Shown: positions 1,220-62,319 of the stretch, piece by piece
Layout of the letters: every line of letters begins with the position of its first letter
Numbering within the stretch: the first letter of the stretch is position 1
Source: Rhynchopus sp. YZ270_cl-10
Lineage: Eukaryota
DNA length: 64,000 bases
Direction: 5' to 3'
NCBI GenBank assembly: GCA_964035575.1
Contig: OZ037837.1
Location: forward strand, 1,798,001-1,862,000
Translations under genes and position numbers: made by a program
The notes under the pieces: generated by a model
Database searches by the model: none
What the model was told of the DNA's origin: nothing
What the model saw: only the letters and a program-made list of their open reading frames with translations

Positions 1220-2359
1220 AAAAAATATATAAAAAAATCTCATAAAAAAAGTCAAAAAATAAAATTGACTTTTGACTTGGGTGTTGACTTACCCATACAA
1301 TTATTTCCACGCATTTTTTTTGTATTGTAGTAGGTGACTAAGCAACCGAAGCTTAGCATCCGGGTTTTTTTTTTCCGACATTTTTCATTTATTTCACTCA
1401 TAGACTGAGTACTCTTGGGTGGGGAAAGTGGCCCTTCCTCCCAAATTTTATGTGTATTCAAGGTGATACAAGCATGAGAGAGGCTTGAGGTCATCTTAGA
1501 AAAAAAAATTTTTTTTTTTTGATTTTTTTTTTTTTGGCCAAACCACCTTCTCCACTCCCCCTATATCTTTATATCCTCGTTTCCTCTCCAAAACCCCCCC
1601 TTTTCCCCCCAATTTTTTTTTGAAAAGTTGTGTGTTGCATCAGGCGCATCGCTTCTTGTCAAATAATCCATTTTTATTGATATTTTTTTTTTTACTATTT
1701 TACTCCCCTCCACTCCCCCGCGTTTTCTATACTCCCTCATCCCCGAAAAAAAGTATTTTTTTTGATTTTTTTTCCCCAAACCTCCAAAAAAAAAAAAGTT
1801 AAAAATCTTTCCATTCTTTCCTTCGCACCCCCACCCCTTCTCCTTATATCCCTACTAAGCGCAACTAAGAGTAAACTGTATCAGATTCTATAGCGACCAT
1901 AAAAGACATGCCTTTGTTCTCCCGATTTTAAATGACTAAATTCTGGTTCAATTGGCAAAGGTGTGTTATGGCCGTATTGTGTGGTACATTTTTTGTTTCT
2001 TCTTTTTTTTTTTAGAGCTTTAGTTGTCTGCGTGCTTTTTTTGTTTCTTCTTTTTTTTTTTTTTGAAATCATGTAAACGCATTCATTTTTATCTACGACT
2101 CGTTTTGTGGCGTAACGTTTCCTCTGCCTTTGTTCTGAGGTGACTTTCATCTATCAACAATTCTAACATCCAAAAAAAAAAAAAAAAAAGCAAGGGTACA
2201 TTTTTGGCACCCTCTTTGCCTTCTTTTCGTTCAGAAAAGAAAGTATATGAAGTAGGGAAAGGAAACCCGATGTCCTAATGCGTGTCTGCAAATAAAAAAA
2301 GAAATGTGTTTCTATGGTATCAGAGTTTCAGCTCCAATTGTAAAAGTAAATGTTGGAGT

Positions 2360-3234
2360 CAGTGGTCGCGCTAATTATGGGAAAAAATGGGGAAAAAATG
2401 GATTTCGGGTACGGAAAAACGTTCCTTGAAAAGGTTAGCTGGGGAGGCCCGGAAACCCCGTTTTGTGGCATTTCCGGGCCAATCCCGGCTTGTGGTGGGG
2501 TATATACGGAAAAATGGACAAAATTTTAGTGACTTAAATTTTCGCAAAATATGAACCCATACTCGTAAACAAGGGTCATTTTCAGGAAAATTCGGAAAAT
2601 TCCGAGATTTGGAAGCAATTTTTCTCCTGAAAATCAGTGGGTTTTCAGCCCCAAAACATACCGCGATTGGAATTTCCGGAATCCGTCCGCGCTGTGGTGG
2701 GGTCACTTTGCCGAAATGGCCAATTTTTTGGTTTTGGTCAAAATCCATGTGGGTAAAGAGGGCCAATGTAAATCCCACAACCAGATTTTCTCTCCCTGAT
2801 CCTGACGTCTTGCAACATGAAAATGCGCGAAAACACCGGCATTTGCATTTCCGGAATTCGTCCGTTCTGTGGTGGGGTCAATTTGCCGAAATGGACAAGT
2901 TCTTGGTTTTGGTCAAAACCCGTCAGTGTAAGGTAAAGGGGGCAAGTGTTTGCCTGTAGAAACTGGTAGGGAACAGGCAGCGCCGCAGGCGCACGGTACC
3001 CAACTTTTTTTTTTTTTTTCCTTTTCTTTTTTCTCCTCTTTCTTTTGACTTTCCGAGCCAATTGCGTTCCACGGCGGGGTCACATGTATATGCAAGTCCA
3101 CTATGTGGTGGTCTTACTCAACAATATTAGAACTTCTGGTTTCTTAATGAAATCCCCGTACTGCAAAAAAAAAACGTTCCTACCAAAACCCCCAAAAATC
3201 CCGGGATGAGGGATGGACTTTAGCGCGAGCTCTG
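2360..3234. mobile_element. Non-autonomous hAT-like element, 875 bp
   Basis: Imperfect TIR CAG(TGG/AGC)TCGCGCTAA; 8-bp TSD GTTGGAGT at 2352-2359 and 3235-3242. Confidence 0.85.
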
Positions 3235-4007
3235 GTTGGAGTTTGTTTTTTTTTTTTTTTTTTGCGAAAAGCAAGTTCTGAACTAAAAACCAAAAAATGG
3301 TTTTTTAAGGATGAATTTCATCCAGAACTTCACCAAAGTTTTCCTCTCCTTTTTTTTTTTTTTTTTTTTTGGAAAAAAAAAATGGGGGAAAGTGGGTTTT
3401 TGGCTTCTTCCCATCATTTTTTTTCTCAAAAAAAGTAAGTTTTTGGAACGAACAAAATTTGACTAAATAGTAAAACAGTATACTCCATCGGGAGGACAGA
3501 GTGGGGGACGTGTTTTTTTTTTTTGCAAAAATGCGAAAGCATTTTTTTTTTTTTGCCCCGTTCCCCTTCCTCCTCCGCAAGTAGAAATAGGACGAGAAAA
3601 AGTATATTTTACCAAGGATGGTGTTACCGAACACCTGTCGAGGACATGTCAATATGGGCCCTTTCGGTAACACCAAAGGATCGTGGTTCAATTTTTACAG
3701 TATCAAGGTGGGCAGTATTCTTTTTTCTGGGAGACTTTCGGGGATGAAATTTTTTTTTTTCAACTCTGCTCCCGAAATGTTCACCTCCACCTCGTGAGTT
3801 GTAATCGTACACCATAATTGGTGTGGCTGAAAAGGGGTGCTATTTTTTGTGCTACTTTCTGCTGTTTTGGGGTCGTCAGCCACACCAATAATAGTATCAA
3901 TATCAATTTTTTTTCTTCTTCTTATAGCTAGCTATGTAGTTGTGGTGTGATCTGGAGTGCGACGAAGCGATAAACCCCCCCCCTATTCTTGGTTTCTTTC
4001 TTGTATA

Positions 4008-4117: not shown

Positions 4118-4979
4118 TACTTATGAAGCGTAGCTTAAAGGAGAAATAGTTCCTTCGACACGTTCGCCAATCACCCCCCTCCAGGGTAATTGAGCGAGCA
4201 ACGAAAAGCAACCTTTTTCCCCTTTTTTTTTACCTATCAGAGTTACTATTTTGTATTTTTATTGCTTTCGAGAAGGCATATATCCCTGTATGCATTCCCT
4301 CAAGAAAATGATTGGATCAATGATGCATCGTTTCTTTCTTTTTTTTTTTTTTTTCAGAAATTCACTAACTCCAGTTGTTATATAGCCTAAATTTTTCTTT
4401 TGCTAGTGCCCCCATGCGTCCTCCGGTGGTGAGGCGTTTGCACTTCAAACATTCCTTTCTTGTTCTAATTCTGCCGCTTTCTTTTTATGCCTATTTTTTA
4501 TTGAATACATACATTCAAATACTTTTTTTCGCAGAAATTTTTTTTTCTTTTTCTTTTTTTCGAGCTGTTCGGATCGTCGTTATTCGTAATGCTCTCTGCT
4601 CTCTTCTTCTACAACTCACTGGTTTATTTTTTGCATTCATTTAAAGACTGGCATCGGGTCTGTCGAGGTGCATTAATAGCTTACATTTCCTTCAAGGTGA
4701 CTCAGCACGAGAGGCTTAGGTTCATCTTATAAACTTTTTTTTTCTTTTTTCACACCGTTGTTCATGGCTGTGTAACTTAAGCTAAAAAAAAAACTTAAGT
4801 TTTCTCCGAAATCCTCCGGAAAATTTAAGCGACTTAAGCTACTGAAAAAAAAAACTTAAATTAAAAAACTTAAGTTTTCGAGAAAAAAACTTAAGTTTTT
4901 TTAGAAAAAAAACGTAACTTAAGTTTTTTTTAAAAAAAAACAGCTTAAGTTACCAACTTAAGTCACTTAAGTTAGCTTA

Positions 4980-5718: not shown

Positions 5719-6220
5719 TAAGTTACAGTTTTTTTTGTTTTTTTTTTTTTTTTTTTGTTTTTGCTTGGACGATGAACTTCACTGAAGGGGCCGGATACCC
5801 GTAGTTTCCTGATGCAGCATCCCTACTGAAAATTCCAAATGAGGGTGACCACCCAATCAAATCGGACTTATCACTGCACCCGCGTGCGGTCAAGTGCACA
5901 CGTGTGGGGCGATTATTCGGAGTAGACATGACAGTGAAATATCGATGGTAAAATGGCTGGTACATGCCAGTCATTTTCCACTTTCCGAAACGTAAATATT
6001 TTGCAACGAAATATTATGATTGGCGTGGCTGCATAACCGATTACCCGTGTTTCTACCAGTTGTCACCCTCATAGGGGATACACGTGTTGGGGGAAAAATT
6101 TTTCGTCGGTGAAGCTTTTAAACGGCGGCATTTGCATTTCCGGAATCCGTCCGGCCAGTGGTGGGGTCAATTTGCCGAAACGTACAAGTTCTCGTTTTTG
6201 GTCAATTTCCGCACAGTACA

Positions 6221-8630: not shown

Positions 8631-9761
8631 CAAAAAATGTAAAAGGGAGTTCGATTTACCTTACTCTTGAAAAAGTTCAGACTTTCCCTAAGTTTTTGCC
8701 CTAAAATAAGTTCAGACTTTTTCCTATTTTTTTTAAGGGCACGTCTCAGACTCTGAACTTATTTTAGGGAAACTCTGAATTTTTTTCTCAAAATAGTGTA
8801 AATCTGACTGTTCCTCAAAAATAAACACACACTGCGATTTGTATAACGTGGTATGCATCCTCTGAGGTGTGTACACGACGAACAAATACAAAAACAAAAA
8901 TCCCCTTTTTTTCTTTCTCCATTTTTTCTCTTTCTCTTTCCCCAAACCTAAGAAGTGTAGCTATTCTCGCCTTTCAAAAAGGGTGTAAGATTATTGCAAA
9001 ACCCGCCTTCTTCTTTGGTGGGGAATTGTCGTCACAAAAAAAAAATATTCTGGGACTAAGTCACAGGACGAGTCCAAAAATTTAAAAAAAAAAAACACAG
9101 GATATAAGAAACTGCCACACTACACCAAAACAAAATACGTCAGGTGTCCACACTAATACAAACCAAATTGTTACCTATCTCTCTCACAATGGAGTTAGAG
9201 GCGGCAAACACAAAGGTGCTCTGCGCCCTTTTTTTTTATCGGGTCCAAACAAAACAAAACAAAACAAAAAAACGAAAACTAAATAGTGCACCTCATCCTC
9301 GGGAGTCTATTACCTACTACTCAGTTTTAAAATAAAACGAAGCAACAATTCTCTGGGACAGGTCTGAAAGCAAAAAATTGAAAAACGAAAAAAAATCTGC
9401 CCTGTTTCCCAAAAGAGAGGACCATCCTCATTACTAAACACTACCGTTTTTTTTTTCTCTTTCGCCCCCCATTTTTCTCTTTTTCGACTGTTTTTCTTTC
9501 TGTTTCATAACTACATGTTTAACCACCGTTGTTTTTGTAAGAAGATTTTGATATCTTCTGCAGTCGATTGACCGCAACCCACATAAAAAAAGATAAATTG
9601 AACGCCAACCTGAAAGTACCATTTTAAAAACCTCCTTTTTAAAATGTACCTGTATGTGCAGAAGATTGCCTCCCATCTCTTAAAAGAACATTTTTTTTTA
9701 GCTAAAATAACTCTGGGGTTTTGATTCTGAGCAGAACGCGCTCTTTTTTTTTTTTTTTTTT

Positions 9762-9916: not shown

Positions 9917-12900
9917 TTTTATTTTCTTTCTTTTTACTGATGTAAGGGAGGGGGTTTTTTTTTGCCAATCACCTCCCCCCCCTTTCAGGAGAACTTCTCT
10001 ATTTTTTCTCCTTCCCCGCCGCTTTACTCGTATTTTCTTTCAGTGTCTGCGCCTGACTGAATAGTGAGGCGTTTGCACTTTCGACTTCTCTTTTCTTTTT
10101 AGACCGATGTGCAAAAAAAATAAAAAAAATATATAAATAACCAAAACATGTGTGCAATTACCGATTTAAACTTAGTGGCCTCAAGAGTGAGGCTCGTGAT
10201 CCTAAAGTCGAAACAAAAAAAAACAAAAAAAAAAAAAAAATCGTTTTCACCTCTCCCTTTTTTTTTCCCATTCAACACTTTTCTGTGCTGGTTTAGGGAG
10301 GGGTATTTTTAATAAAATGAAAAAAAACAAAAATTATTTCAACATTTTTTGCGAAATGAAATGAAAAAAAAAGGCTTTCACCCAAAGTGGGTCATTTTTT
10401 TTTATTGTAGACTTACAAGCATTCCCTATATAGTGGGACAAAAGCATCTGTTCAATGTTTGTGCAAGGAGGCATAATCATCTGTTACTAGTAAAAGGTTT
10501 ATTTTTAAATATTATCTGTTGTAATGCGTGGTTTATCACGCAAAATAGTTCAAGGTGACGTTTATTTTTTTATTTTATTTTTTGAATCTAGGTTGTACTC
10601 TGCTTCGGTAACCTCGGATTAGGTTCTTTTCTTTCACTATCAACTTCACTTTCTTTCTCCGAATCTCTTCTAAAAAAAAGCAAAAAAAAAAAAAAAAATG
10701 ATAATCTAAAATTCCCATTGAAAAATCCCCCCTGATCTTCCCCCCTCCTCCTCCCCCCTCCCCCCTCCTGTCTGTGTGTAAGCGTACATCACCCTTATCA
10801 GGATCTATGTTCATTTTGTTTGAACATTTTCATTATTTTATTATTTTTTTTTGACCCGTGTTACATCAACTCAAATCCATATTCATTTCCTCCCCCTCCT
10901 CCCCCCCGTTCCCTCCCCACACACACACTTTTTTTTTTTTTTTTTTTTTGCTCAGATTTTCTTTCCATTTTGCCCTCCCTCTGTTGATTTCTTAAAGAGT
11001 GTGAGGACTCCCCCACCCCCTCCCTTCCCGAGTCGGGGCCAGGCTCATCTTATTTTTAAAAAAAAGTTTTTATTTTGTCCACCAAAAAAAAAAAAAAACC
11101 ATCCACTCCTTTCATCCTTGACAACACATAGGAATTTGATTTTTTAGACCCCACCCCAAGCACAAAACAAACATAACAAAAACTTCATAAAAACCCATTC
11201 AAACACCCCAAGTTTGGTATTAAGGCTCTGCAAAGGTTTGCATGAGTTATTCTAGCTTTTTCTCTGTTTAAAAAAATGTTTTAGAGACCAATTTTCTCTT
11301 TTAATCGAATAGCAAACCCCAACCCAACCTTTAAAAACAAATATTGGAAAAATTCAGTTCTACTAAAATTTTTTTTTCAAAGAACAAAAACTAATACAAA
11401 TTTTCATATTGCCCCCAACCCCCCAATAAAACTCCCTCAACAAAACCCCCCAAAAATATTATTTCTTCTAAAAAAAATATCTCTCATTTCTCTCTGTTGG
11501 AGAAAGACAACAACTCCATTTTTTCTCTTTTCAAAAAAAAAAAAAAGAACATAAAATACATGTCTTGATCAGTTTCTCTCTTATTTTGGAGAGTACTTTC
11601 TATAGGGTCCAAAAACTCATGTTCGTTTTACTGACTCTCTTTTTCTTCTTGTATTTCAGATATTTTTTTTTTTGTGGAAAAAAAAAAAAAAACAAAAACG
11701 GTACTACTTCTTCATCGTTTATGCCCGAATGGTATTATTGAAATCAGCACTTCTCTCTCTCGCTGTAAAAAGGATATCTCATCTCGGATATCTCCAATAA
11801 TACAAAACCAGTTTTTTTAAATAAATTACAAAGACTTCAAACTCATAAGCCGCTTTTTTTGTTATCTATCTCTTCCTCTTCCTAGCCTAAACAAAAGCAA
11901 AATTTCCAGAATTTTTTTTTTGGCAATTTGGCGGCTTTTTTAGACTCTCATTTAGGAGTACTTTTCTTTTACATTTTTCTTTTTATTATCATGATGTAAA
12001 CCACGAAATGTAGGACTGCATGGTTGGGGTGTCCACCCCCCAACCATGCCAAGAATGGAGACTCTTGGCTTCGTTGATGGCAAACTAATTTCTTTTTTAT
12101 GCATAATGTCAACATCGAAATAGAAAAAGGACTGCATGGTTTTGGGGAGGGGTCAACCCCGGTGTACTCAAGGTACACTGTGTCATTGTATTTCAAGTAA
12201 ATTTTCTTTTTTTTTTTTTTTTTTTCTCTTTTTTAAAAAAATGCTGTGCGAGGCCAACACATTCATCTAAATCAGGTGAGAAAAAGGTGACTAAGCAAAA
12301 ACGAGAAGAGGCTTAGGTTCATCTACTATAATTTTCTAATTTTCTTTTTTTCTTCCTCTTCATCTGGGGATGCGTTCCCTTACCCGTTAGTGAGATATTT
12401 TTTTTTTTCTTCAAAATTGTTGACGCGTTTGCGTCAACAATTTTTTTCAACTCTTTCTTCTTTTTGAGATATAGAGATGTGTGCCCGAGAGTGCACATTC
12501 ATCTTCAAAAATAAATAGTTTCTTCTTTTTTTTAAAAATTCCTTTCTATCGCAAGAATGCGCCCATTCTTTTCTAATTTATTTTTAAAATGATGTGCGCC
12601 AATGAGAAGCACATTCATTTCTTCGAGTTTCCCTCTTTTTTCAATTTTTTTTTATTTAAATTTTTCTTTGATTTCACCTGAAAACGGTCAGCTACCGTTA
12701 CTTTTTTTTTTTCTTTTTGAGGAATTTGGAAAGCCTTTCAAAAAAAAAGGTTTATATTTCCACTTTTTTGCTGTTTATTGTGCGATGTTTAACCTATATT
12801 GCGCGGAATACTTTATGTATACACGGCAGCCCAACTCAACACCGGATTTTTTTAGGCTATTTAGCCTTCCGGTGCAGCATACAGGACTTTCCTGAAAAGC

Positions 12901-13781: not shown

Positions 13782-15081
13782 TTTTTTAAAAGAATTTTCA
13801 AATTTTTTTTGCATTCCATAGAAAGGGTAACACCAAAAAACAAAAAATCATATAGTGGAGCACACTCTAGGGTGTCTACACTAATACAACCAAGTTTTCA
13901 AAAAAAAAATAAAGTGCAGCCTAGTAGGCCCTACCCCCAAGATTCTTTTTTTTCTTTCTTCACAAAAAGCCTTCAGTGGGGGTTAAGGACAGCACTTTAT
14001 CTCCACCTTAGTATGTATAAAAGTAGTGCACACTCTCGGGTGGCTACACTATTACAACCAAGTTATTAAAAAAGAAAAAAATCAAGAGTTGGGCCAACAT
14101 TAAGTGACCCTAGGTTTTCCCAGTGCTTAGGTGATTGTCGACAACAACAGTCGTGAAGATGCAATGAGAAGATAGACACTAAAAAAAAAATTATTAGTGG
14201 AGCCCCTCCTCGGGGTGTCTACACTGATACAAAAAAAAAAAAAAACCAAAGTTTTTCGAAAAGAAATATTTTGGGGTAAGGCTTCGGCATTACGTATAGA
14301 CGATGGGATAGATGGTGTACAGTGATTGTCGATACAAAAAAAAACTAGCATAGATACGACACATTGAATTTCTTCGGAACAGAATGACCTAAGATCAGAG
14401 AGCTTTTTTTTTGTGAACTTTTTGGAAAGAGTGGAGAAATGGAACGCTTCCGCTTTTACCTGAAAAGAGAATTTGAGGAAAAAGTGCACTTCTCTCTATA
14501 CTTGGCGGTTCACGTACAAGCCTAGGCTGTCCTGTTGCAAAGATTTGATGATAGTTGTATTATCCTATCACCAAAACTCTTTCTAGATAGGTGTCGATGT
14601 ATCTTTGGTTTGTTGTTAATAAGAAGGCGCTCATCAGGCCCTTGGAATTAGTCGACACAATTTTTTTTTTAAATATTTTTTAGCTAAACTCTCAACGGAT
14701 ACGGGTAAGATGACTAACACAACAATGCAGACACGGCGCGCTGTTTCTTTTTGTGGTGTGGTCGAGTCATCCCAAAAAAGGATGACAAAATAAAATGCGT
14801 TTGTCTCGTTTTCCCTCTTTTTTTGTGCCATGTAAAGGCGGCTTTTGACCCGGCTTTGCTTTGCCAAAAAAAAAAACCCCCCCTTTTTTTCTCCCCTTTT
14901 TTCATATTGATGAAACTTATATTTTCTTTTTCTCCACCTCACAACGTATCAAGGCGTGCTTCTGCACCCTATAGACTTCTTGTACATTATTGTACACAGA
15001 AACCGTCTTTTTTTTTTATCATGAAGAATATTGACGACGAGGCAGATTCTTCACGATTATCATGTTTTTTTTTGACAAGAA

Positions 15082-15216: not shown

Positions 15217-15578
15217 AATATTTTTTTTTCTTGAAATAACAAACACAGCGAAAAGATCACGCTCATTTTTTTTTTTTTTTTTTTGTTTTTTTTTTTTTTT
15301 TTTTTTAAACTTTTTACCAAGCCCCTCCCCATCCTAGGTTGCACCTGAGTGAACCACTGTCCCCAACTATTTGATACACGACATATTTTTTTGCAAAAGA
15401 GGAACATACTTTTGTGCATTTCTCTATAATATTTTTTTTTAAGGGTGACTAATCATTCATCCTTTTAACTTTCTTTATTATCGAGACAACGATAGTGGTA
15501 AGATGTGCACGAGAAGCACGCTCATCTTTTTTTTTTTTTTTTGACATGATTTTTTTGGCCTGTTCTGACCAAAATAAC

Positions 15579-16241: not shown

Positions 16242-18038
16242 AAAATAACATTTGGACAAATACCCAGTCTTTTCTTTCTTGGGGGGTTTTCCTTATCACG
16301 GGGTTCCTCAAGTTTAAAAGAAGAAAAGGGTGTGGGTAGTGCCATTTGTGCAAGGAAGCTTTTCATTTTTTGACAACTCGTGGGGGGGGAAGCGGATGAC
16401 TCCCTCCTCCATAACCCACTCTGCAAAAATCGGGAGGAAACAAAAGTGCATTTTTTTTTGGGAATAAAATAACCAAATTTCAGGAAAAACAGATTTTTTT
16501 TTTTTTGAAAAAATCCCAGTTTTAATGTCTTAGACTCTAGACACCCCTTCCTCCCCCTGATTCATTTTTTAAAGACCACCAAAACAAAAAATTTTAAAAA
16601 GAGCACAAAAACAACAACTTTCATTAACTTTCAAAATCTTCCCTGATTCATAACATTGATCTCAATAGTATCTCCCCGACCCAAAACCCCACCTTTTTTT
16701 TTTTTCATGCATTTTTCCTTTTTTGTTTGCGATAACTCTATCTTACTCTACTCTTAAGTCCATCTTTTAAAAAAAAATGTTCTTAAGTTCATCGTTCACA
16801 ACTCTTTTTGCCCTGTCCATTACATTCCTCCCCAAATAAAACAGAAAAGAAAAAAAAATGTGCTGTCAGACAGTCTGTAAGGATACTTGCCTTTGAAAAG
16901 GCGGCCAGTAGTACATAATCTTAATTTTTTTAGAAAATGGGGGAAATGAGTAGGAGGGGGGGATATTGTCGTGCATACTAACCCCCTTTTTTTTTTGGGT
17001 GATATTTTAGGACAGAGCCCATCTTGGTGGCGGTGATTTGTCTCTAGAATTATAAAAGAAGTAAAAACTTAGTGTTTAGTGGAGAGCACACTCTAGGCTA
17101 CACTAATACAAAATTTTCAAAAAAAACAAAAAAAAAAAAAAAAAATCTTTCTCTCAACCACACAACTCCCTCATCTCATACCAGCTTCCTTTTTTTTTAG
17201 TGTAAAGCCCACAGCAGGAATTATTTTTCTCTAGCAAAAGTTTCCGCTGTGAGGGTGGATTTACACCAAAATATTTAAAAAAAAAACGTTTTTGGGGGAG
17301 AGACTGAGTAAAATACGCGGGTAGGATTTTTGGTCGACCTCAAAAACACAAAAAAAAACAAAAAAAAATATTGAGTGCAAGAACCCAGATACCGCCCCTT
17401 GGCGGGGCGATTGTTAAATACAAAAACCAAAACAACCAAAACAACATCCTTTCTTCCATCAAGTGAAATACAATTGCCCTCCCTTTAGTCTCATTCGTAT
17501 TTTGCTTCACGTACTTCATTTAGAACCACACCAACCCCCCACCCACTTTTTTGTGCCTACAGCACGTGTTCGCTCCAGCAGGTGCTGGGGAAAAAAAAGA
17601 AAAGAAAAGAAAAACATAAAAAAAGGGAGGTATAAAAAAAAAAGTAAATGCAATACGGCCACGGGTAGCGCGTATTCTGTATTTTTTTTCTCCTTTATTT
17701 CTTCTTTAGTTGCTATTTTTTGGATAGGGTCTTCCCCCTTTTTTTGACATTTTTTTTTTTTTTTGATTTTTGTTTCCCCCTGTTCTCGTGTGGGTACGAT
17801 GACCCCACGGAAGAATCGGTGCTTCTGCCTGATTTTCAGAGGCGTTTTTCTTTTTTGCTCTGTCAAAAACTATACTAATTGTACACTACAGAATAAATCC
17901 CCCTTTTTTTGTATATTTTTTTTTTGTCAGTTTTTGATAGTGAACACTATTTGAGGGTTCAATTTCAATCTGATTTTTCTCTCTTTTTTCACACAGTGTT
18001 CGAGTGGAATTGTGGTAAATCGTCAAAAAAAAAAAAAA

Positions 18039-18821: not shown

Positions 18822-18855
<34 letters not shown>

Positions 18856-21876: not shown

Positions 21877-23493
21877 AAACGATAACAAAAAACTGCACAA
21901 AAGAAGTGAAAAAAAAATCCCCCTTCACCCAGGCTACTGCAAACCAAGTTTTTCAAACTGACAGTAACAGAGGGGGGAAAGAAAAACTATGGAGCTCATC
22001 CTCGGATGTCTGCACTTCTACAACCAAGTTTTTCAAAAAAAAATAATCAAAAAACGTATTTTTTTTTGAAGGATAATGCTTTACGCACTTTTGTTAAAAG
22101 ATTGGGATCAAATAATGTATCCCCCCATATTTTTTTATCCTTTTTTCGTTTTCTATATTTTAGAGGTGACCAATGTGCAAATAATGCCTTCGTCCCTAAA
22201 CCATTTTTTTCTTTGCTCTTTAACGTTTCTTCTCTCTCTCTTTTTTGCTCTACCCCCCAACCCCCCCCACCCACTGCCTCCTGATCAACCGAAGATGGTT
22301 GAATTTTCTTTTACCCCTGAAATCTCTATTCACACTCACTCTGTGGATAAACACTGAACGCCAGTAGTGGCAGTCAGCCAAAACAACCAACCCAAAAAAA
22401 AAAAAAAACCCTTAGATTGAGCTCATAGGGAGCTCCGTTTTGTCATCTTCTCCAAGTTGTGTAACCATTTGTGGGATTTGTTGGGTCTTTTTTTTTTTGT
22501 GAAAAATTTTTTTTTGTGAATTTTTCCTGAGAAAAAAAGACCCCAAATCACCCCAATTTTTTTGTGCTTCTTTTTAGCGTGTACGTTCATGCTATTTGTC
22601 GTGTGTCTGTTAGAGGTGACTATGCATGTCGGTCATATCCCTCCTTATTTTCTTTCTTTTTTATTTCTTCGCAGATGGATGTGCACCGAGAAGCGCACCG
22701 CTCTTTATTGTATTTTTGGAAAGACTGCAAAGATTGTTTTTTTTTTTGTACTATTATCATTATCTTTTTTTTTTTACGGAATTAGAAGAATTTAGAGAGA
22801 AAAAAGAAAAATACTTCATTGGCTCCAAACCAATGAGTTCCTCCCCCCCTCCAGAAAGGGAAAGGGTTCTACACATTATTTTCAAAAAAAAAAAGAACTG
22901 ATTTCTCTCCTGGGGGCGTGGGGGACTGTCGAAAAAGCAAAAAAAAAAAAAATTATAAAATATTCCTGCAAAAAAAAAAATCTCGCCCCCTCAAAACCCC
23001 CCAAAAGAGAGAATACTTTTACTCACCTCCTGCATAATGATATCGTAATAATCTTTCTCCCAGAACTAACGTTACCAACCCCCATAAGAAAATAAAAAAA
23101 AATATTTTCAAAACCCCCAGAAGAAAAGCAATCAAGAAGAAGTACAAAGCAGCATTTTTTTTTTAAAAAACCCATTCTACCCATCCTCTAAACCCACTAA
23201 TTCCACTCCCCAAAAACAACAACAAAAAAAAAAAATTGGAAGAAAAGAAACGAAAAGAAAATAAAATAAAAAAAACATCCACTCCAGTTCCACGATGATA
23301 AGTAATGTAAATCAGATCCATTGCCCTTTCGTGGTTATTCCACAACCCAACACCCCTTATTTTTTTATTTATTTTTATCTCAGAAATACCCGACAAGCGT
23401 GGGACCAAATGTCATAATTATTAAATATTATATTTATTTCAAGCTGAACAGTGAGAGGCTGAAGGTCATCTAAAAAGAACTTTTCTTTGTTTA

Positions 23494-23601: not shown

Positions 23602-25543
23602 TATTTTTTTTTGTCAGTGACTGCGTCTCAGAGACTTCTGCACTTATCAACTTCACTTTTGGGAAAGATGTAATGGACGTCAGCTGAGATACATTTTTCC
23701 AAACACTTTTATTTTGTTTCTTACGGATGACGTACTAAGTAACAGTACATAGTGCACCCTTTGCTGCTGATTGAGGCACTCTCACAGTATGTAGATGAAT
23801 TTCTTATTAATATTGTGCTTCCCGGGAGAGGAATTTGTGAAATGCATACCCCCGGGTAGTACCGAATTATGACTGGCTAAACACGCAGTACAACGAGTAT
23901 TTTCTCTCTGCACGGTAAGGTAAATAACCTGACTTATGGTTTTATTTGTGGTTTCACCGTTGTAAGCTAACGGTGCAAGCCATAAGTAAAAATCAAATAT
24001 CACGTCATTTTGCTTCGTGTGAAATATCCCAATACCCCCCGCCCTGAATACTTTCCTCAAACCCCGAAAAAAAAATAGTAAAAATTTTTAAAAAAGAAAA
24101 AAATATTGAACAACGGTCTTCCCTCGGGGCAACCAAACAAATAGAAATGTAAAAAAAAAACAAAACATAACAAAAATGTGCGACAGTCTGTCGGAGGAAT
24201 GTGGTCGATTTTTTTTTTTTCAGAAGGTGAACACCGTTTTGCCCGTGGTAGAGAGTTCTTTTCCTGCGTGTATAGGCGACGAAACTGTTGGTTATTTATA
24301 AGTGGGATACAAAAGAATGGAAGAGGCTCGACCTGTAACTTTATATTATTTGCCTTATTTCTTTGGACAAATGCACGGTGACACCTCATGTTACGGTTCA
24401 GGGGTTTCTCCTGTGTTTTTTTCTTCTAATTATGGTGCTTTCTCTTTTTTTGTCCTGGTTATTTTTGTAGGGCCTTCCACATTCTAATGTTTCACATTTG
24501 TGCAGATTCTGTTTATTGAGGGGGAAAAAAAAGATTGGTTTATGGAAATTACCCCCTTTTTTTTAAAAAAAAAGTTTTGGGACTGTCCCCGACTCCTCAC
24601 GCTGAAGCATATCATTGCGTTCATTCAGAAAAAAAATAATTACTGCCCCCATGTGCTCCCCATATTTCTGTTTTTTTTTTTGATTCCCTCCCTCTCCCTG
24701 ACCCCGGGGTGGTAAATAAATCTTGCGGGCCACAGAAATCTCTCCTTTCCTTGACTCACCTCAGCGGTCACGCAAAATAAAATAAATACAAAAAAAATTC
24801 CCCGTTTTTTTAAACCAGATTTCCCGTTTTTTTTTTTTTCATCTTAGTTCATCCCCATTTCCACTCCCCCAGCGTGTATTTATTTTTGCATGATTTGCGA
24901 AAATTTAAAAGGTAAATTTTATTTGATTTTTTGTTGAAGAAAAAAAAACTTGAAAGATGTGTCTTTTCCGATGTCATCTTTCAATTTTTTTTTTTAGAGG
25001 GTCAGCTGACAGCTGACAGCTGAAAAAAAAAAAACTGTATTTCCCCCAATGGTGAGGTGGCACGGGGGAGCGGGGCGTACGTTTTTTTTTGTGACGTCTT
25101 CCCCCCCCCCCCCTCGATAAAACGGTTTTGTGAATGAAAAATAAAAAGTAGACTGCATTTTTGCAGCCAAGCATCTTCGCGCATAAAATTACAAGCGAAA
25201 TTCTCGAGAAAGTGAGAGGCGTCAACGCAACATACGGGACGTCAATAGTTTGGACGAAAGTTGATTAATGGACAAATTCTACTATTGTATTTTTTTCCAT
25301 GTACACAGTGATTTTTTTTTTGTTTTGACAAAAGGTGACTAAGAACGAGAGGCTTAGGACCATCTCATAAAAAATTTCTTTCATTTTAACGGTCCTTGTG
25401 TGCTTTTCTCTACGAATGGAAAGATTATGAAATTGACTTTTTTTTTGTATGTGCAGATGTCGCGCTTTCATGCACATGATACACATTCATCTATCTTCTT
25501 CTCCTTCGCTTCTCTGCAAAATTTTACAGATGAGTTTTATGTA

Positions 25544-37704: not shown

Positions 37705-39872
37705 AAAAAAGGGGGCAATAAAATCAAAACATCGCAAATATGAATTTTTCGGAGCGATCTGAAGAAATTGTATTGGGTCGGACATATTTTTTTTTAGTGG
37801 AGTTTAAGCCAGTACCCACACTCGTTTTCATGATCCTCATCTCCAACCCAACTGCTCCCGCTTCGCGACTGTGAAGCAGCGAACAGACACTGATTTCTTC
37901 AGCTCCGGGAAACCCACAAACCATCAAAACCCAACAAAAAGAAAGAAAAAAACAGTTAGTGGAGCACACTCTAGCCTAGACCTAGGGTGGCCACACTAAT
38001 ACAACCAAGTTTTCAAAAAAAACATACTTGCAAAAAATACCCACCTTGCATCACTGCTCCCTCTCTCTCTCTCTTTCTCTCTCTCTCTCCCCCTTCCCCT
38101 TTTTGTTGTTCATCGATGTTATATCGATAATGGCCCCTCTGTGTTCAGGGGGCCTCACTTCCCCTCCCTCTCTCTCCCCCCCACGAGAATATTTTGTGCT
38201 TTCATCCAGATGACTGGCATCGTACACAGTCGACCAGTCGGAAACGGGGCATTGGGGTGTACCATTTGATAAGCAATGGTATTTCAAGTATAGGTGAGGT
38301 CACGACACCTTCCCCCCTTTTTTTTTCCCAGTTGTATGTGCACGTTTTAAGGAACCTTTTTTAGGTCCCCACTTATGAAGTCAGGCCAGTGTCCTTAGAG
38401 GGACTCCTAAACGGTACTGCCACACCCTGAGGGGGAGGTGTGCTGTCTGTATACTATGTGGCAACAACGGGGAGGTGACCTCCGTATGTCGGCAATCCGT
38501 GAGTAGTAGACGTGGGAAATGGCACCAACCGGGACACAGTCCTGGGTTTACTCTAGATTGAATATGAAAAAAAAAAAAAAAAAAAACAAGCAGCCACACT
38601 GCGACAACAACGCTAAGGTGACGAGAGGCGAACATCAAAGCATTTTTTTTTAAACCCACAACAACATACAAATCACAACAAAATATCACCAACTTCATAT
38701 TCACCCCATTCACACCCCCTTTGCTGTGCCTGTACCTTAAGGGGGCACCAACACAAGGGTATTGTATTAACCAGTGCCTGCGTCCACCGGTGTACGGTGA
38801 GGCGTTTGCACTTTCTCTTTCGCTCCCCCCCCTCCACACACAGTAAGCGTTTAGTGCAACTATACTAAACGCGATGCATGAGCACATTCACCCTTAGAAC
38901 GGTGAGGTGTTTGCACTTTCCCTTTTTTTTTCGAGAAGCATTTTTTTCTTCTTGCAGCTCATCACCCCGTACTAAACTCTTCTCCGAAGCTATTTGTTTT
39001 TTCACAGAAAGCCACATATCCAGGAATTTTTTTTTTTTGAAGAAAGAAGGAGTTGGTCCACCAGCAACTCCTCTTTGGTTTGTTTTTTTTTTGTGGCAAA
39101 AAAGGAAACAAATACTAATAAAAAGTGGAGATTTGCACAACTGTGGCAACACAACCGAGGCAACTACACTACAACAATTTATCAACAAAAAAAAAAAAAG
39201 CAAAATTCAAGACTGTCAAAAAAAGGCAGCTACACTAATACAACAAACAGGCATATTACTCAGTCACCATATTTGGGAAGAAAGCGATACGGCGAAAGCA
39301 CATCACTTTAAAGTGGCTCCAAAAAAACGGGCATATTGTAGCTGATCTATGCAATGTTATATGGGTGAATCATTTATGCTAAGGTGACTAAGCACGAGAG
39401 GCTTAGGATCATCTTATAAACTTTTCTTTATTTTTAGTGTCACGTGAGACGATTCTTTGTAGCCTCTCTCTTTTATTTTCTCTCCGTCCCCACCCCCCCC
39501 TAAAGCAAGAAGCCTGATCTAAAGGTGGCTGCCATTACTTTAAAGTGACAGTCTGTCTGTGTGACTTGCTGGTGCACGCCCTTGTGTCCCCCCCTTAGCG
39601 TGGCAAATACAATGTACAGTAATACAACAAACGGTGGGGTAAAAAACTAAGGTGTATTTTTGGTTTTTCAAAACTCTGAGGAGAGGTTTTTACCCCCACC
39701 GATGTTGTCTTACTGTACATTTAGGGTACTGTCCATGGCACGTCAACTGAAACCTCAACTCGCCATGCGCATACCAGAAGGGACACGTGGCAGCAATCAA
39801 CTTTTTCCACAGCGACTTTGTATTTTTTTTGGCTACATTCTTGTTCGCCTTTCTCTCTCTTTTTTATTTCTC

Positions 39873-42751: not shown

Positions 42752-42976
42752 TTTCTCTTTTTTCTTCCCACTTTTTCTCTCTCCGTACAAAACAAACCAT
42801 ACTTTTTTTTGAATTGATGTTGTTTGAAGGTGCCCACTTACACGGTATTATATTAACTATTGTGATCAAAGATGACTATAAGCAACGGGTGGCTAAGGTT
42901 CTCATAACCCTTTCTTTGTTTTTTGCCTTTTTGTTTGCACTTTCAACTTCTCTTTTTTTTTTTGTACCCCCCCGAC

Positions 42977-46140: not shown

Positions 46141-47717
46141 ACTTACCCTCCCCCTTTTTTTTTTATCACTTCATTTTTCCTGAAATTTTTGTGGGGTTTG
46201 GGTTTAAATGCCACCTAATACCACAGAAAAAATTCCACAAAATTCCACAAAATTCCACAAAATGTCAGGCAAAGTCAGGTGGTGTTTTCTTTTGTGTACT
46301 TGAACTTTGAATACAACAAATATATACAGATCCTAAGGGATACTGGGAGATTTTGTTTTGTTCTCCTGCATTGTAGTAAAGGTGAATGCACCAGGTGCAG
46401 GAAGAAAAAAAAAAACGGTACGCATTTTTATATTTTTCAAACTTTTCTCTCTTTCTTGCAGTGCTCCACGCGCGTGTTTGTTGTAGAGCTGTGCTCTATC
46501 ATAAGTAATGTCTTTATGTTAGTGTGTGACAGCACATTTTTATATTGTGATTTTTTCCCCGTGGATGTGCCAGTGCCTGCATCCCAGAGGTTTGCACTAT
46601 CAACTTCAACAGGTCAGTGCAATGACTATCATACGGTAGCTGGCTTGAGGTGAAACCCCAACCAGGCAAGCCCGACATATGCACTTTTTTTTATAACTCC
46701 ATCTTTCGAAAATATTATCTTAATCTTTGTATACGTTATCCTCATGACGTCATTGAGTCATGGATGGAAACCATGCTTTTTTTGTTCGCTGTGGACCTGT
46801 ACACCTTCTATGTCGTTCTCCGACCGACCGTGTGCATGCCAATGAAGTGCTCTCTGGGTTTGATCTCCCGCTGAGAGTTGTCTTGTTTATGAACTGTGCA
46901 AGGCGTTTTACACTTTCAGCAAAAGTCCCAACTAAACAAAAGATGAACGGAGTTTTTAATATTTTTTTGTAGAAATGCAGTTCCTATGTCCCCGCCGCTT
47001 GAACGGTGAGGAGGTTTGCAATTTCTTATTGAACTGTGCAGATATCCTTTTTTTCGTGTTGCTTCTTTTTTCCTTTTCGGTTTCTTTTGTTTACTTCAAG
47101 TGTCCTTTTTTTGATGAAGTTTTGCGATGATGGAAAAATGGAAAAGGGTTTAAAATAAAATACTGCGAACGAGACCCATAAAAACAGACATTACGTTTCA
47201 CATGTGGTACGAGGGGATTCTCTGTGATTAAATTTGAGATTTATTTGAGTTTATTTTGGGGCTTATTTTCGAAGATTTTCTTTTTGAATACTTTTTTCGC
47301 CGTTTCCATCAATACCGCAGACCAATGGATTCATTTCATTTCCTTGGATCCCCCCGATGAATGTTTCATCCCTCCTTTTTTTTTTTATGTTAGAGTTCAA
47401 ACGCAGTTGACAGGGGAAATGCTACGGTCGCTCTAACTGTTTTCATGTCCTCCTTTCTCACACGTCCCTTTTTCTTCTTCTTTTGCTGCCCTTTTTTTTT
47501 TCGCGTTTTTTTGAAACAAATAGAAAAGGATCTGTGTGTATCTCAATAGATCATACTTTGTGCTTTCTCTTCTTTGATTTGAAAGTATATGAAATCTATT
47601 TCTGTTTATGTTATTTCCCTTTTTCAATAAAAGCTCTCTCTTTTTCTTTGCGTACAATCGGAAAATAAGATTGTGCGCATTTTGCGGTAAAACTTTAGTG
47701 GCATGTTTAAAATTTTT

Positions 47718-59510: not shown

Positions 59511-61704
59511 ATGCAATGTCTCAATGCAGTGCTGTCGATGGACGGGACACTCAGCAGCAAGGCCAGAGAGAGGCGCACCAGGTTTTTTATATTTGCCAAT
59601 GCTGGTTTGTTAGCTCTTTTGGTGACCTTTGCAATTTCGTTTTCGATGCAGGTGAAGACTCCAATCTATCTGGCTGCGACTGTGTTCTGCCTTATTGGAT
59701 TTAGCATTGCTGTTTGTGCAGTGCTGTGCAGGTTTCGGCTGAACACACATCTGGTGGTAGGTGCACTGTACTTGGTATCGGCTGGCTTTCTGCTCTATGA
59801 CTTTACAGCCCATACAATGTCGACATCACAATGGCCGTTGCTTGTGCTCGTAATCGACATGTTGCTTGTGATGCAGGTGCCTGCACGGTACAGCTTGGGA
59901 CTCGTCTGTTTCATAGTCATATGGCTTATCCTGCTTGGTGTTGAGGAGAGCTTCAGGTTTGGTTTGTTTGACCTGCCAGGGCTGCCAGCACAGGAGGGTG
60001 AGTACGGGCGGCAGTATTTTCATGACATGCGTTACGACTGTGCCACTCTGCCGTGTCCAGTGAAGTTTCCTTCTTCATCCCTGTTGGGATCGCTGACGGT
60101 CTTTGTCATTGACTTCATCGTGACTCGAGGCTTCGCACACGAAGTGCTGAAGGAGCAGGCATCAATGGAGCGGACGATCAACACTGTGCAGGAGATTGCC
60201 TCACTCCTGGCTTCCTACGACGTGGAGAAGGTGGCAGAGCTGCTGGAGGCACACAGAGACGAGCTGCCTGAGGGGATGAGTGCGGCACTGCGTGCGTTGG
60301 AGAAGAACCTGCGGAAGTACCGTCCGTACCTGCCTGCTGCGCTGTTTGAGGTGGATGAGGACGGTGTGCAGCAGCCGACTGTGGCACCGCCTGGGCTTGA
60401 CAGCGAGACAGCAACGATTGTGTTCACAGACATCCGTGCGTCAACGTCGATCTGGGAGAACGCACCTGAGGGGATGCGTGCTGGACTGCAGATCCACAAT
60501 GCTGTGATGCGTGATGTGATGCGGATGTGTGGTGGGTACGAGGTGAAGACCATTGGCGACGCATTCATGATTGCCTTTGCATCCACTTACGACGGTGTGG
60601 CGTTTGGGTTGCGTGTGCAGGAACGTCTTTTCGAAGCAGACTGGCCTGCGTCTCTGCTTGAGGATGCACCCATCTGTTCTCGTCAGGGGTCGCTGTGGGG
60701 TGGTCTGACTGTGCGTATTGGTGTGAACACTGGCCCTGTGACTGTGGAGCAGAACACACTGACGGGACGGACAGACTACTTCGGACACACATCACGCCTT
60801 GAGAGCACATGCACACCTGGTGCTGTGGCTGTTCCCTCTGACCTGTGGACGTCTGTCTCTGGGTCGTGCAGTGCTGTTGCTGGTGTGCCAGAGGCAGTTC
60901 ACTTGAAGGGTGTGTCTGGGAGCACGTTGGTGTGCTGTGTGTGGCCTGTCTCACTTGGGGGACGCAGGGAAACACCACTTTGCGAGTCTTCTCCACCGCC
61001 TGCGAATCTGACAATGAGTCTTTCCACATCCGCGCCGTCTGTTTCACACACAACCTCTGTGAGGACCAGAGGACGAATGGAAACCACACCTTGCGAGTCT
61101 TCACTTTGCGAGTCTTCTTCGCAAAGTGCCAAACCGCATACGAGTCTTTCCATATGTGCGTCGTCTGTTTCAACCAGAAGCAACCTTGCAGTCTCCACAC
61201 GTCAGACCTCCGGCACACTGGGAGTTGCACAGCTTCCAGTTGGTGACATGGGAAAAAACATAGTCTTTCACCAGATGAGCTCACGACTCACGACACTGAC
61301 GACGGCACTGGAGCAGAGTGGAGGGAGTCTGGTGACGCTGCTTGGGAACTGTGTGTGTGTTGGGTGGAACGTGTCGCGTTCTGCATCTGCACACATGGAG
61401 AACGCGATACGGTTTGCGCATGTCTGTGAAGTCTACACTGAACGGGGCTGGTCTTGCAAGCGGTCCTGTGCAGCACGGGGATGTTGGTGCACGGAGCCAG
61501 CGCTTTGTGACTGTGATGGGGGATGTTGTGCGTCGGAGTTGGGCGCTGTGCGAGGAGGCTGTGCGTGACGGGGTTGTGTGTCTGTACGAGCCTCCTGAAG
61601 GGACAACACTGCCATCTGCACTTGAAGACGTTCTTGTGCAACACAAGGGTTGTTACCGGGTGCTTGAGGTACAGGACAACAGGGAACGCGACAATGTGTT
61701 TTAG
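59511..61704 (+). pseudogene. Membrane-anchored class III adenylate/guanylate cyclase with a degenerate second cyclase domain; probably pseudogenised
   Basis: N-terminal TM helices; TIVFTDIRAST..W, GGYEVKTIGDAFM and VRIGVN.G. DYFGHT-SRLES lacks the VNxA residues; a frameshift near 61420 leads into ORF 61342-61704 (GLASGPVQHGDVG..RFVTVMG). Confidence 0.82.
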
Positions 61705-62319
61705 TTGTTCTCTTTCAACTGTTGCTTCTGTACGGTTGCAAGCTCTCACATGGCGCAAAGTGAGTGAGTTTTTGACAACGTTTTCTTCACACGCTTTAGT
61801 TGCTCACCAGACGTTCTTTACAGGACGGACGGTCCTTCTCAGGTGTGAGGGGAACGTACAGGGTGTGGCTTTTACGGAGCTTCTTCGGGATGGCGTTAAG
61901 ACAAAATATTTAGCTCAGAATATTGTACTCGGATCCGAATATAGGGCGTATGTGTCAGAAAAAGAGAATATAGAGTAGCTAGCACTAAAGTGTCTCCGGT
62001 CTGTGAAGTTTTAAAACAAAAGCAAAAGTGGAGTGCATCCTCGGGTGTCTACACTAATACACTAATAAAACTACGTTTTTAAAACATGACAGGTGTCCCC
62101 TCAAGTGGACAGAGTGTTCGCACTTCAACTTTTATTTTAATGGAAATTGGAAAAGTGTTGAACAACAATCATTGAACAATGAAAACAAAAGTAATTTTTT
62201 CACGATGCAGGTGTGCATTATGCCACCACTCTCTTCACCTTTGCTTTTTTGTATTTTCTCGTGATTTTTTTGTTAAGTAAGAGAAAACCGAATGGAGTGG
62301 GAACGCTAGTGAGAGCGCA

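Follow-up and report, generated by a model that had tools for sequence, protein, structure and literature searches.

Co-oriented families of short hairpin repeats, possibly retroposon-like, in a 64-kb window of the Rhynchopus sp. YZ270_cl-10 genome

The window analysed here, a 64,000-nucleotide stretch of contig OZ037837.1, holds six genes, all on the + strand. A pyrimidine tract and AG precede the start codon in two of them (FAH and NAGLU), NAGLU contains a GT-AG intron, and a 93-nt piece of 28S rRNA lies at 35729-35821. The Diplonema papillatum genome paper describes one-direction gene clusters, intergenic regions longer than 10 kb, LINE-type reverse transcriptases and some 3,600 fragments of 28S at scattered sites. 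Dispersed over our window are short hairpins (Table 1), which the initial annotation had counted at more than 30 and sorted into four families. Both figures are borne out by nhmmer scans of both strands of the window, using profiles made from the copies in the window itself, which returned 7, 13, 8 and 6 matches at E<0.05 for families A, B, D and E respectively.

Table 1. Hairpin repeat copies and fragments in the window
Feature	Position	Strand	Support
A family, partial (3' arm degraded, 5' arm and loop present)	1332..1356	+	nhmmer E=0.1, model 5-29
A family unit with CAAGC/GCTTG as inner stem	1458..1504	+	nhmmer E=1.5e-9; cmsearch 51.4 bits
A family unit	4692..4739	+	nhmmer E=1.2e-15; cmsearch 62.9 bits
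A family unit, loop enlarged	12283..12337	+	nhmmer E=5.9e-12; cmsearch 48.1 bits
A family unit, stem decayed	23439..23479	+	cmsearch 46 bits; nhmmer E=4.5e-4
A family unit	25331..25377	+	nhmmer E=1.4e-13
A-like, inner stem shortened (weak)	34275..34308	+	nhmmer E=0.002; cmsearch E=0.34
A family unit, 50 nt; ends set by contig loose ends	39380..39429	+	nhmmer, cmsearch, contig depth
A-like; matching ends and tail, different inner hairpin	32812..32845	-	cmsearch 21.2 bits, E=0.0065
E family unit	12237..12269	+	nhmmer E=8.6e-5
E family unit	12473..12506	+	nhmmer E=1.1e-7; folding
E family unit	12588..12622	+	nhmmer E=7.9e-6
E family unit	15497..15530	+	nhmmer E=2.3e-7
E-like unit, 3' arm conserved	25455..25494	+	nhmmer E=0.11
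E family unit	32651..32685	+	nhmmer E=8.5e-8
E-like hairpin	33406..33430	+	nhmmer E=0.0027
E-like hairpin	22673..22706	ambiguous	profile favours -; loop like + copies
B family, 5'-truncated	9141..9172	+	nhmmer E=0.0016, model 17-47
B family unit, diverged	9285..9332	+	cmsearch 46.5 bits
B-type tail behind different hairpin	11782..11816	+	nhmmer E=0.034, model 14-47
B family unit carrying an A-run	13853..13906	+	cmsearch 71.5 bits
B family unit	14022..14073	+	cmsearch 61.1 bits
B family unit, tail with A15 insertion	14195..14262	+	cmsearch 49.8 bits
B family unit, then interrupted A-run of 27 bases	17078..17124	+	cmsearch 44.2 bits
B tail-only fragment near the following unit	21942-21957		
B family unit	21990..22040	+	cmsearch and nhmmer
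B family unit	29437..29490	+	cmsearch 64.9 bits
B family unit	29607..29660	+	cmsearch 68.1 bits
B family unit	34019..34072	+	cmsearch 72.9 bits
B family unit, 11-nt loop insertion	37957..38021	+	cmsearch 60.1 bits
B2 variant: hairpin base as in B, loop long, own tail, A-run	39123..39185	+	cmsearch E=0.14
B family unit, 460 nt 3' of adenylate cyclase gene	62027..62084	+	cmsearch 55.5 bits
D family unit	4405..4461	+	nhmmer E=6.4e-14
D family unit	10041..10096	+	nhmmer E=1.8e-14
D family unit	32867..32924	+	nhmmer E=4.6e-18
D family unit	38772..38825	+	nhmmer; contig depth
D family, 5'-truncated, behind E-like 3' arm	38894..38926	+	nhmmer E=4.6e-6, model 18-50
D family, reduced to the 3' end	42933..42955	+	nhmmer E=0.0074, model 33-55
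D family, internal deletion	46571..46607	+	nhmmer E=0.021
D family, truncated	46991..47026	+	nhmmer E=0.0071, model 8-45

The conserved unit is larger than the 27-50 nt hairpin first described, consisting of a hairpin of 27-40 nt and a 3' tail of 10-20 nt, which together span about 47-60 nt. Alignments that included 100-150 nt of flanking DNA confine conservation between copies to approximately 50-60 nt, and the flanks are unrelated. The hairpins are imperfect, and each of the four families has a 1-2 nt bulge in its 3' arm. A and E have a common stem base (AGRTG...TTCATCT) and a GAGA-containing loop, while their inner stems are wholly different in sequence, with pairing kept in both. Several features of placement noted in the initial annotation were also recovered. 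The copies are clustered, in the intervals it had listed among others (nearest neighbours lie a median of 216 nt apart, versus 481 nt when placement is random; P=0.008), and they sit in A- or T-rich surroundings, the flanks of B being rich in A (51% and 50%) and those of A, D and E in T (41-57%). Matched flanks are no more alike than mismatched ones (permutation P of 0.47, 0.53, 0.38 and 0.93 for B, A, D and E), so that, as had been claimed, no target site duplication (TSD) is detectable above the low-complexity background.

The most prominent property of these repeats is their orientation. All 34 family matches at E<0.05 lie on the + strand and none on the - strand. Covariance models, which the initial annotation had called for together with a scan of both strands, agree with this for families A and B within the window. 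With filters off, the B model gave 13 matches on +, 11 of them strong and 2 weak, and none below E=1 on -, while the A model gave 6 strong and 1 weak match on + and a single weak one on - (Table 1). Adding an E-like copy that scores best on - yet has a loop resembling those of + copies, the ratio is ~34-35 on + to 1-2 doubtful copies on -, in one window whose genes are all on +. The earlier statement that there is no clear reverse-strand copy therefore stands for the nhmmer counts, but not as a strict zero. Among BLAST pairs in the window, hairpin families gave 36 direct and 0 inverted, whereas other repeats gave 64 direct and 31 inverted, upholding the contrast originally drawn with repeats of mixed orientation.

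Other features say less about strand. The AG...CT closure, described as common to these hairpins, is its own reverse complement and so holds no strand information, and it is unenriched among all local hairpins folding at -9 kcal/mol or lower (29 of 625 on +, 31 of 645 on -). The longer AGTG...CACT closure is enriched (16 hairpins, when a 4-mer closure has 4.1 on average), and B or D copies account for 10 of these 16. The proposal that G-T pairs mark the + strand applies to A, B and D, in which + folds better for 6 of 7, 11 of 11 and 5 of 5 copies, but not to E (+ better in 3 of 7, - in 4 of 7). As G-T positions are inherited within a family, this amounts to three of four families rather than 22 independent cases.

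The better folding of + in A, B and D, owing to G-T pairs, would be expected of functional RNA hairpins in polycistronic or intergenic transcripts, original or adopted after spread, with selection keeping sense copies only. Such hairpins could serve as protein-binding, cleavage, decay or splice-acceptor-masking signals. The strong sense bias, the retention of pairing in the divergent inner stems of A and E, and the AG with which A, D and E begin after T-rich DNA are also consistent with this possibility, and SIDER2 retroposons acting as 3'UTR decay signals in Leishmania, as described in the literature, provide a precedent. However, we consider this explanation quite unlikely. Of the six gene 3' flanks of 600 nt just two carry a unit, the five upstream regions of 200 nt that were inspected carry none, most copies fall in a 48-kb stretch holding one gene, and E folds the wrong way in the majority of its copies. 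Covariation, proposed earlier as a test, shows no excess over shuffles within either family analysed (paired cells 84.1% versus 84.3% shuffled in B, 83.5% versus 82.6% in A); the one compensatory pair seen was equalled in 88 of 500 shuffles, and within-family variation looks like decay. Tandem arrays and copy numbers of 10^3-10^4 would in turn suit selfish spread. The cis-acting RNA half of the original proposal gains no support from these results, and most likely the units are not signals needed by each gene.

The abundance and arrangement of the units can be seen in contigs of four public sequencing runs (X1-X4), of which 8,397-14,594 per run align to the 1.4-kb region 38100-39500. Summed contig depth over the three units in this region is ~10^3-10^4 times that of neighbouring single-copy DNA: unique bins have depths of ~95-400, compared to 200,133-755,656 for the D unit (~1,600-2,100 times the unique bins), 1,023,990-3,932,137 for B2 (~7,600-11,400 times) and 777,375-2,339,277 for the A unit (~5,500-22,600 times). 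The ends of the A unit are sharp, with contig loose ends before 39380-39382 and behind 39429/39435. Elsewhere in the genome, A units are joined head to tail with a step back of 50 nt (4-9 contigs per run, sides 27-49 nt), and mixed head-to-tail joints (D to A, A to D, B2 to A and D to B2) occur at other loci. All 15 of the joints listed are same-strand, out of a larger set with 147 more, with the caveat that most joints have short sides (18-31 nt) and derive from contigs.

Arrays of A units with a period of 50, together with a B spacing of ~170 nt in two places (13853/14022/14195; 29437/29607) and the wealth of other tandem and segmental repeats in the window, could indicate dispersed monomers of short satellite-like tandem repeats. 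These would have spread without a dedicated transposition enzyme, via extrachromosomal circles, unequal exchange or gene conversion, and would owe their orientation to local duplication. We regard this as highly unlikely: single units always share phase and ends, which is not expected from scattered array fragments, and the flanks between copies cannot be aligned, so that local duplication cannot explain ~15 separate clusters, all on +.

The mobile-element half of the original proposal is supported by the discrete units, unrelated flanks, high depth and head-to-tail joints, though the units need not have moved by the single-stranded DNA route that was envisaged. On that route, the units would be minimal hairpin elements of the HUH type (Helitron-, Helentron- or IS200/REP-like), whose bulged hairpin is recognised on one DNA strand by a Rep/Y1 or RepHel protein encoded elsewhere. 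Insertion into A or T tracts would occur without duplication, rolling-circle copying would generate head-to-tail arrays, and orientation would follow the replication fork, which tends to run with transcription in euglenozoans. The imperfect hairpins with their 3'-arm bulge, the lack of a detectable TSD, the near-uniform orientation, the A arrays of exactly 50 nt with same-strand mixed joints, and the homopolymer tracts around the units all agree with such a mechanism, and Helitron-like ORFs are reported for Diplonema papillatum in PMC10161547. Nevertheless it appears unlikely, given that the mapped ends lack a 5' TC and, shortly past the hairpin, a 3' CTRR, that no Rep gene is found among 73 ORFs of at least 100 aa between 1.2 and 49.5 kb, and that IS200/REP systems are prokaryotic. 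The variable A-tails of B and the partial copies that retain the 3' end also fit reverse transcription better, pointing to an RNA-mediated route instead.

We lean, tentatively, towards reading the hairpins as four families of discrete interspersed repeats that are ultra-short, non-coding, retroposon-like mobile elements. B copies terminate in A-runs of 7 to 27 bases, the genome-wide loose-end consensus 3' of B2 is the B2 tail followed by at least 16 A (agreement 0.72-0.74), and each of the 5 partial copies with E<0.05 lacks the 5' part but retains 3' positions (B 9141 and 11782; D 38894, 42933 and 46991). In such a scheme, read-through transcripts would supply the RNA of the element, the genome probably being transcribed in long one-direction units, and a reverse transcriptase from another locus, initiating at the tail, would copy the element into A-tracts (B) or T-tracts (A, D, E). 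New copies would often land beside an earlier one, copying would sometimes halt early, and sense copies would persist or seed new ones, as is the case for Leishmania SIDERs. The role of the stem would be at the level of RNA, either as a handle for the enzyme or as a processing point.

Some observations run against the retroposon reading. In A, D and E the DNA behind the unit is T-rich and A-tails are lacking. Target-primed reverse transcription alone does not produce a single orientation, and since runs of at least 8 bases are common on + for both A (131) and T (168), target supply does not account for the absence of reversed B copies from T-runs. The units also show no detectable TSD, the same 73 ORFs include no remnant of a reverse transcriptase or other transposon protein, and a Pol III-type head is missing, there being no tRNA-, 7SL- or 5S-like head or Rfam match at any unit.

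The initial annotation recognised no described class in these hairpins. As to kind this was too strict, as sense-biased degenerate retroposons (SIDERs) are known in kinetoplastids, although we found no published description of these particular 50-nt units. Bacterial REP/BIME sequences with RAYT, and PATEs derived from IS200/IS605, are 30-40 nt imperfect bulged hairpins with a conserved 5' end that lie outside genes in very large numbers and have their strand specificity in the DNA. Our units resemble them in these respects, but those systems are prokaryotic whereas the intron and 28S fragment mark this window as eukaryotic, and REPs usually alternate in orientation within BIMEs while these units are co-oriented and tailed. 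Non-autonomous Helitrons and Helentrons (DINE-1/HINE) likewise share a hairpin (near one end), lack of TSD, insertion at A/T-rich dinucleotides or tracts, a tendency to head-to-tail arrays and strand-specific structure; the present units are much shorter, lack the terminal 5' TC and 3' CTRR and, in B, carry an A-tail. SINEs and other target-primed non-autonomous elements parallel B in variable A-tail, A-rich sites, 5'-truncated copies and same-direction neighbours, but SINEs are longer, and our units differ in having no tRNA/7SL/5S head, no detectable TSD and, in A, D and E, no A-tails. SIDER1 and SIDER2 of Leishmania, which are several hundred bases long, are similarly non-coding, high-copy, intergenic or located in 3'UTRs, sense-biased and found amid one-direction gene clusters, in contrast to units here of 47-60 nt made of one bulged hairpin and a tail. 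The literature gives SIDERs a 79-nt trypanosomatid retroposon signature, and PMC2689281 reports sense copies to be ~4-fold commoner than antisense in Leishmania. The ~35 to 1 bias in this window far exceeds that 4 to 1, which itself weighs against the retroposon reading; if these repeats are retroposon-like, their sense bias is stronger than that of the Leishmania SIDERs.

Profile HMMs built from the window copies of the four repeat families (A, B, D and E), and used to search both strands at a cut-off of E<0.05, returned 7, 13, 8 and 6 matches respectively, all 34 of them on the + strand. The window-wide set of co-oriented hairpins described in the initial annotation is thus confirmed, with corrections. 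Where the bare hairpin had been taken as the element, the conserved unit, 47-60 nt long, consists of a hairpin and a 3' tail specific to each family, and in alignments carrying 100-150 nt of flanking DNA similarity vanishes outside it. The statement that no clear reverse-strand copy exists holds for the profile search (0 on the - strand) but needs amending elsewhere: the covariance model of A recovered, besides its own 6 members, a weak + match and also a - match (32812-32845, 21.2 bits, E=0.0065) whose ends and tail are those of A but whose inner hairpin is not, while an E-like copy at 22673 is doubtful, scoring best on the - strand yet having a loop that resembles those of + copies. The B covariance model, run with filters off, found its own 11 members and two weak + matches, with no match below E=1 on the - strand of the window. 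Overall, ~34-35 copies are + versus 1-2 doubtful - copies, a ratio that describes one window in which every gene is on the + strand. BLAST pairs give the same picture, with 36 direct and 0 inverted for the hairpin families versus 64 direct and 31 inverted for non-hairpin repeats. Copies are also clustered, their median neighbour distance being 216 nt versus 481 nt at random (P=0.008).

Two further arguments about strand fared unevenly. The AG...CT closure noted for every stem is its own reverse complement and so cannot mark a strand, nor is it enriched among all hairpins (29/625 on +, 31/645 on -); the sequence common to the four families is AG(R)TG...CA(Y)CT, and AGTG...CACT closures are enriched (16 versus a mean of 4.1 per closure). 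The argument from G-T positions on the + strand stands for A (6/7), B (11/11) and D (5/5) and fails for E, in which 4/7 fold better on the - strand; since such positions are inherited by copies, it counts as three families of four.

Contigs from four public sequencing runs (X1-X4) aligned to 38100-39500 allow abundance to be gauged. Unique bins of this stretch have summed depths of ~135 (X1), 95 (X2), 400 (X3) and 140 (X4), and those within D, A and B2 (a variant of B with a long loop, its own tail and an A-run) have far greater ones (see table), though the fold values are orders of magnitude only because summed depth is not copy number. A further hairpin nearby, whose summed depth across these runs is ~1,100x single-copy (again an order of magnitude), is probably a fifth high-copy family. 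Loose contig ends place the boundaries of the A unit at 39380/39382 and 39429/39435. At other loci, 4-9 contigs per run join A to A, stepping by exactly 50 and with sides of at most 49 nt, and mixed D-to-A, A-to-D, B2-to-A and D-to-B2 joints occur as well; among the joints listed, 15 of 15 are same-strand (the full set has 147 others outside this listing), and most have short sides. Taken together, depth, ends and joints indicate that the units are very abundant discrete modules, often arranged head-to-tail in one direction. The contigs of X1-X4 break at the repeats and none spans the stretch; among the gaps listed, none is unit-sized. Pattern scans of metagenome contigs with the B core and the A core gave 0 matches each, as did A core scans of genome contigs and of viral contigs.

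Several observations bear on how the units spread. Window B copies terminate in runs of 7-27 A; the consensus of 77-123 contigs behind B2 has the B2 tail and then 16 A or more; and all five partial matches at E<0.05, a small number, lack the 5' part and keep the 3' end. B is flanked on both sides by A-rich DNA, a setting that A/T-tract-primed insertion would predict, and new copies adjoin old ones. These features suggest an RNA template that was copied starting at its 3' end. The initial annotation had suggested a strand-specific single-stranded DNA mobile element; a mobile element it appears to be, but the A-runs and the 3'-retaining partial copies favour an RNA-mediated route over a single-stranded DNA one. 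Several features nonetheless point against a textbook SINE. DNA downstream of A, D and E units is T-rich and has no A-tails. The longest words shared between flanks, our test for target-site duplications (TSDs), were not longer than in mismatched flanks (P=0.38-0.93), a comparison of poor power in low-complexity flanks such as these, in which single candidates do occur (e.g. a 10-nt word around 62027). A Pol III promoter head of tRNA, 7SL or 5S type was not found: ARAGORN reported no tRNA in the window, and Rfam matched none of the units, whether its gathering thresholds or a limit of E=1 was applied. The only gathering-threshold match in the window is an LSU rRNA fragment (35729-35821), and relaxing the limit to E=1 adds only sub-threshold matches to miRNA models on long palindromes away from the units. 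No reverse transcriptase remnant was found within the window.

We regard the orientation bias as the most interesting feature of the units. Homopolymer runs of at least 8 bases are common on the + strand both as A (131) and as T (168), so the supply of targets fails to explain the absence of reversed B copies in T-runs. As ~15 separate clusters all point the same way, some directional process must be at work. By analogy with the short interspersed degenerate retroposons of Leishmania (SIDERs), sense copies may be the ones retained in one-way transcription units; alternatively, only sense copies might be transcribed and hence be the sole sources of new copies, or orientation could be coupled to the direction of the replication fork. 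These candidates are weighed here on a single window with all genes on the + strand.

The units could instead be functional RNA hairpins acting on long transcripts, the other reading put forward initially together with a call for covariation analysis. Neither A nor B shows an excess over shuffles: paired cells amount to 84.1% versus 84.3% in shuffles for B and 83.5% versus 82.6% for A, whose one compensatory pair was equalled by 88/500 shuffles. Stem variation within families is mostly decay instead of co-variation, and RNAalifold gives B a weak consensus of 5 pairs. On the other side, A and E agree in their stem base, in a loop that contains GAGA and in ending on TTCATCT, while their inner stems are wholly different and both pair; this case is suggestive, since a hairpin needed for its shape, in RNA or in single-stranded DNA, would look this way. 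As gene signals, the units do badly: one lies within 600 nt past the stop codon in 2/6 genes only, the first gene being followed by A copies (1332, 1458) and the cyclase gene by a B copy (62027), and none lies in the 200-nt upstream regions of five genes (0/5). From the sequence, then, the cis-RNA reading appears unsupported.

The window DNA is eukaryotic, as seen from the GT...AG intron of the NAGLU gene and a piece of 28S rRNA. All six recognised genes are on the + strand, and in two of them (the fatty-acid hydroxylase and NAGLU genes) a pyrimidine tract and AG precede the start codon. Among 73 ORFs of at least 100 aa between 1.2 and 49.5 kb, Pfam found no significant family, which leaves this part with a single gene and no transposon protein remnant. 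The gene-poor part contains 191 stable local hairpins (-15 kcal/mol or better) versus 105-124 in block-wise dinucleotide shuffles. A search for relatives at the protein level yielded a single protein at 51% identity, and the Atlas yielded NAGLU clusters only.

Other repeats are present as well (see table). The inverted 623-bp copies consist of 31-nt tandem units that fold into very long palindromes (-45 to -48 kcal/mol); in appearance they resemble a foldback or the two termini of a large TIR element. The ~180-nt repeat appears to be an element of a different kind that was active recently.

Features of the window, with summed depths in sequencing runs X1-X4 where available (fold values over unique bins are orders of magnitude)
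Feature	Position	Strand	Details
ORF without name	2-1219	+	
Fatty-acid hydroxylase gene	35952-36812	+	
BspA-type LRR protein gene	49967-51178	+	
LRR-coding repeat	50801-51324		75 nt; runs beyond the BspA-type gene's stop codon (51178) into the 3' flank
NAGLU gene	51899-54384	+	GT...AG intron at ~53229-53496
F-box protein gene	55393-57714	+	
Adenylate cyclase gene	59511-61568	+	
D bin	38758-38804		X1 211,943; X2 200,133; X3 755,656; X4 274,374; ~1,600-2,100x unique
B2 bin	39134-39180		X1 1,023,990; X2 1,085,558; X3 3,932,137; X4 1,374,498; ~7,600-11,400x unique
A bin	39369-39415		X1 2,137,897; X2 2,149,460; X3 2,339,277; X4 777,375; ~5,500-22,600x unique
Further hairpin	~38194-38240		AGATGACTGG...CCAGTC
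28S rRNA fragment	35729-35821	+	93 nt, isolated; Rfam LSU model positions 2885-2984, 84.5 bits; 130 nt upstream of fatty-acid hydroxylase gene; flanked by repeats of ACCGTAGCA-like word
Inverted 623-bp copies	40346-40968; 41819-42441		99.8% identical
~90-110 nt non-hairpin repeat	53379-53466; 37003-37104; 19257-19368	+	NAGLU intron; hydroxylase 3' flank; gene-poor part
GATTGTCGAYA motif, then A-rich run	8611; 14133; 14324; 26845; 28005; 29377	+	palindrome 8567-8630; family twice 20-60 nt upstream of a B unit
GATTGTCGAYA motif, then A-rich run	37126	-	
~180-nt repeat	9739-9932; 28639-28831; 47713-47887	+	97-100% identical
~180-nt repeat, older copy	18025-18210	-	~76%
Tandem array	63455-63872		GTGTATACT x46; spurious long ORFs on both strands at window end
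Tandem array	6212-6500		CACAGGTA x36
Tandem arrays	5082-5689; 21340-21876		295-nt and 268-nt units, x2

If the organism is a diplonemid or a relative, few sequences would be commoner than these units in its large, repeat-rich genome, whose non-coding repeats are uncharacterised. A 50-nt unit with a near-absolute bias offers a clean system for asking how direction-dependent insertion or retention arises in genomes transcribed one way, be it through transcription, replication or selection against antisense signals. For annotation, the units break short-read contigs, and unit starts with AG behind pyrimidines could mimic splice acceptors.

Comparison with known elements led us to reject several identities. 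MITEs do not fit, the units being asymmetric with a one-sided tail, having no fixed TSD in their immediate flanks and showing ~35:1 orientation; for Tc1, hAT or CACTA-type MITEs, end motifs are only loosely alike, again with no TSD and a tail on one side. A tRNA, 7SL or snoRNA origin is without Rfam or ARAGORN support, and a group II domain-5-like hairpin was rejected because its bulge would sit at a different position. Helitrons and Helentrons begin with TC and end with CTRR, with a hairpin a few bases before the 3' end; these termini are absent from the mapped ends of the units (A begins TAAGG and finishes CTTT, and the D and B ends were also read), and no RepHel gene was found within the window. 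The units could also be the counterpart of the REP/IS200 hairpin elements of bacteria. Single bulged hairpins of ~50 nt would then be complete eukaryotic mobile modules, inserting head-to-tail without duplication, keeping one orientation relative to transcription or replication genome-wide and reaching >10^4 copies, some of them co-opted in polycistronic RNA to mask, or serve as handles for, splice-acceptor AGs or cleavage sites; as a joint claim we consider this improbable.

Leishmania SIDERs, in which sense copies are ~4-fold commoner than antisense ones (PMC2689281), resemble the units in that these too show a sense excess in a directional gene cluster, seen here in one window, whereas the 79-nt trypanosomatid retroposon signature at the SIDER 5' end exceeds the whole length of a 47-60 nt unit. 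We found no description of the units in full-text searches or in the Diplonema papillatum genome paper (PMC10161547) outside its main supplement on repeats; its other supplements make no mention of hairpins, stem-loops, palindromes, inverted repeats, SINEs or MITEs, and in the parts of the paper covered here the majority of dispersed repeat motifs are left without explanation. The same parts describe unidirectional gene clusters, spacers >10 kb, ~3,600 scattered 28S pieces and a GH89 expansion (PMC10161547). To the extent of that account, the window, with its one-direction genes, pyrimidine tracts and AG before two start codons, very long repeat-rich spacers, stray 28S piece and GH89 gene, is alike and probably comes from a diplonemid-like euglenozoan; its isolated 28S fragment matches the scattered pieces, and the LRR repeat extending past the stop codon of the BspA-type gene recalls the repeat-bounded gene structures of Diplonema.
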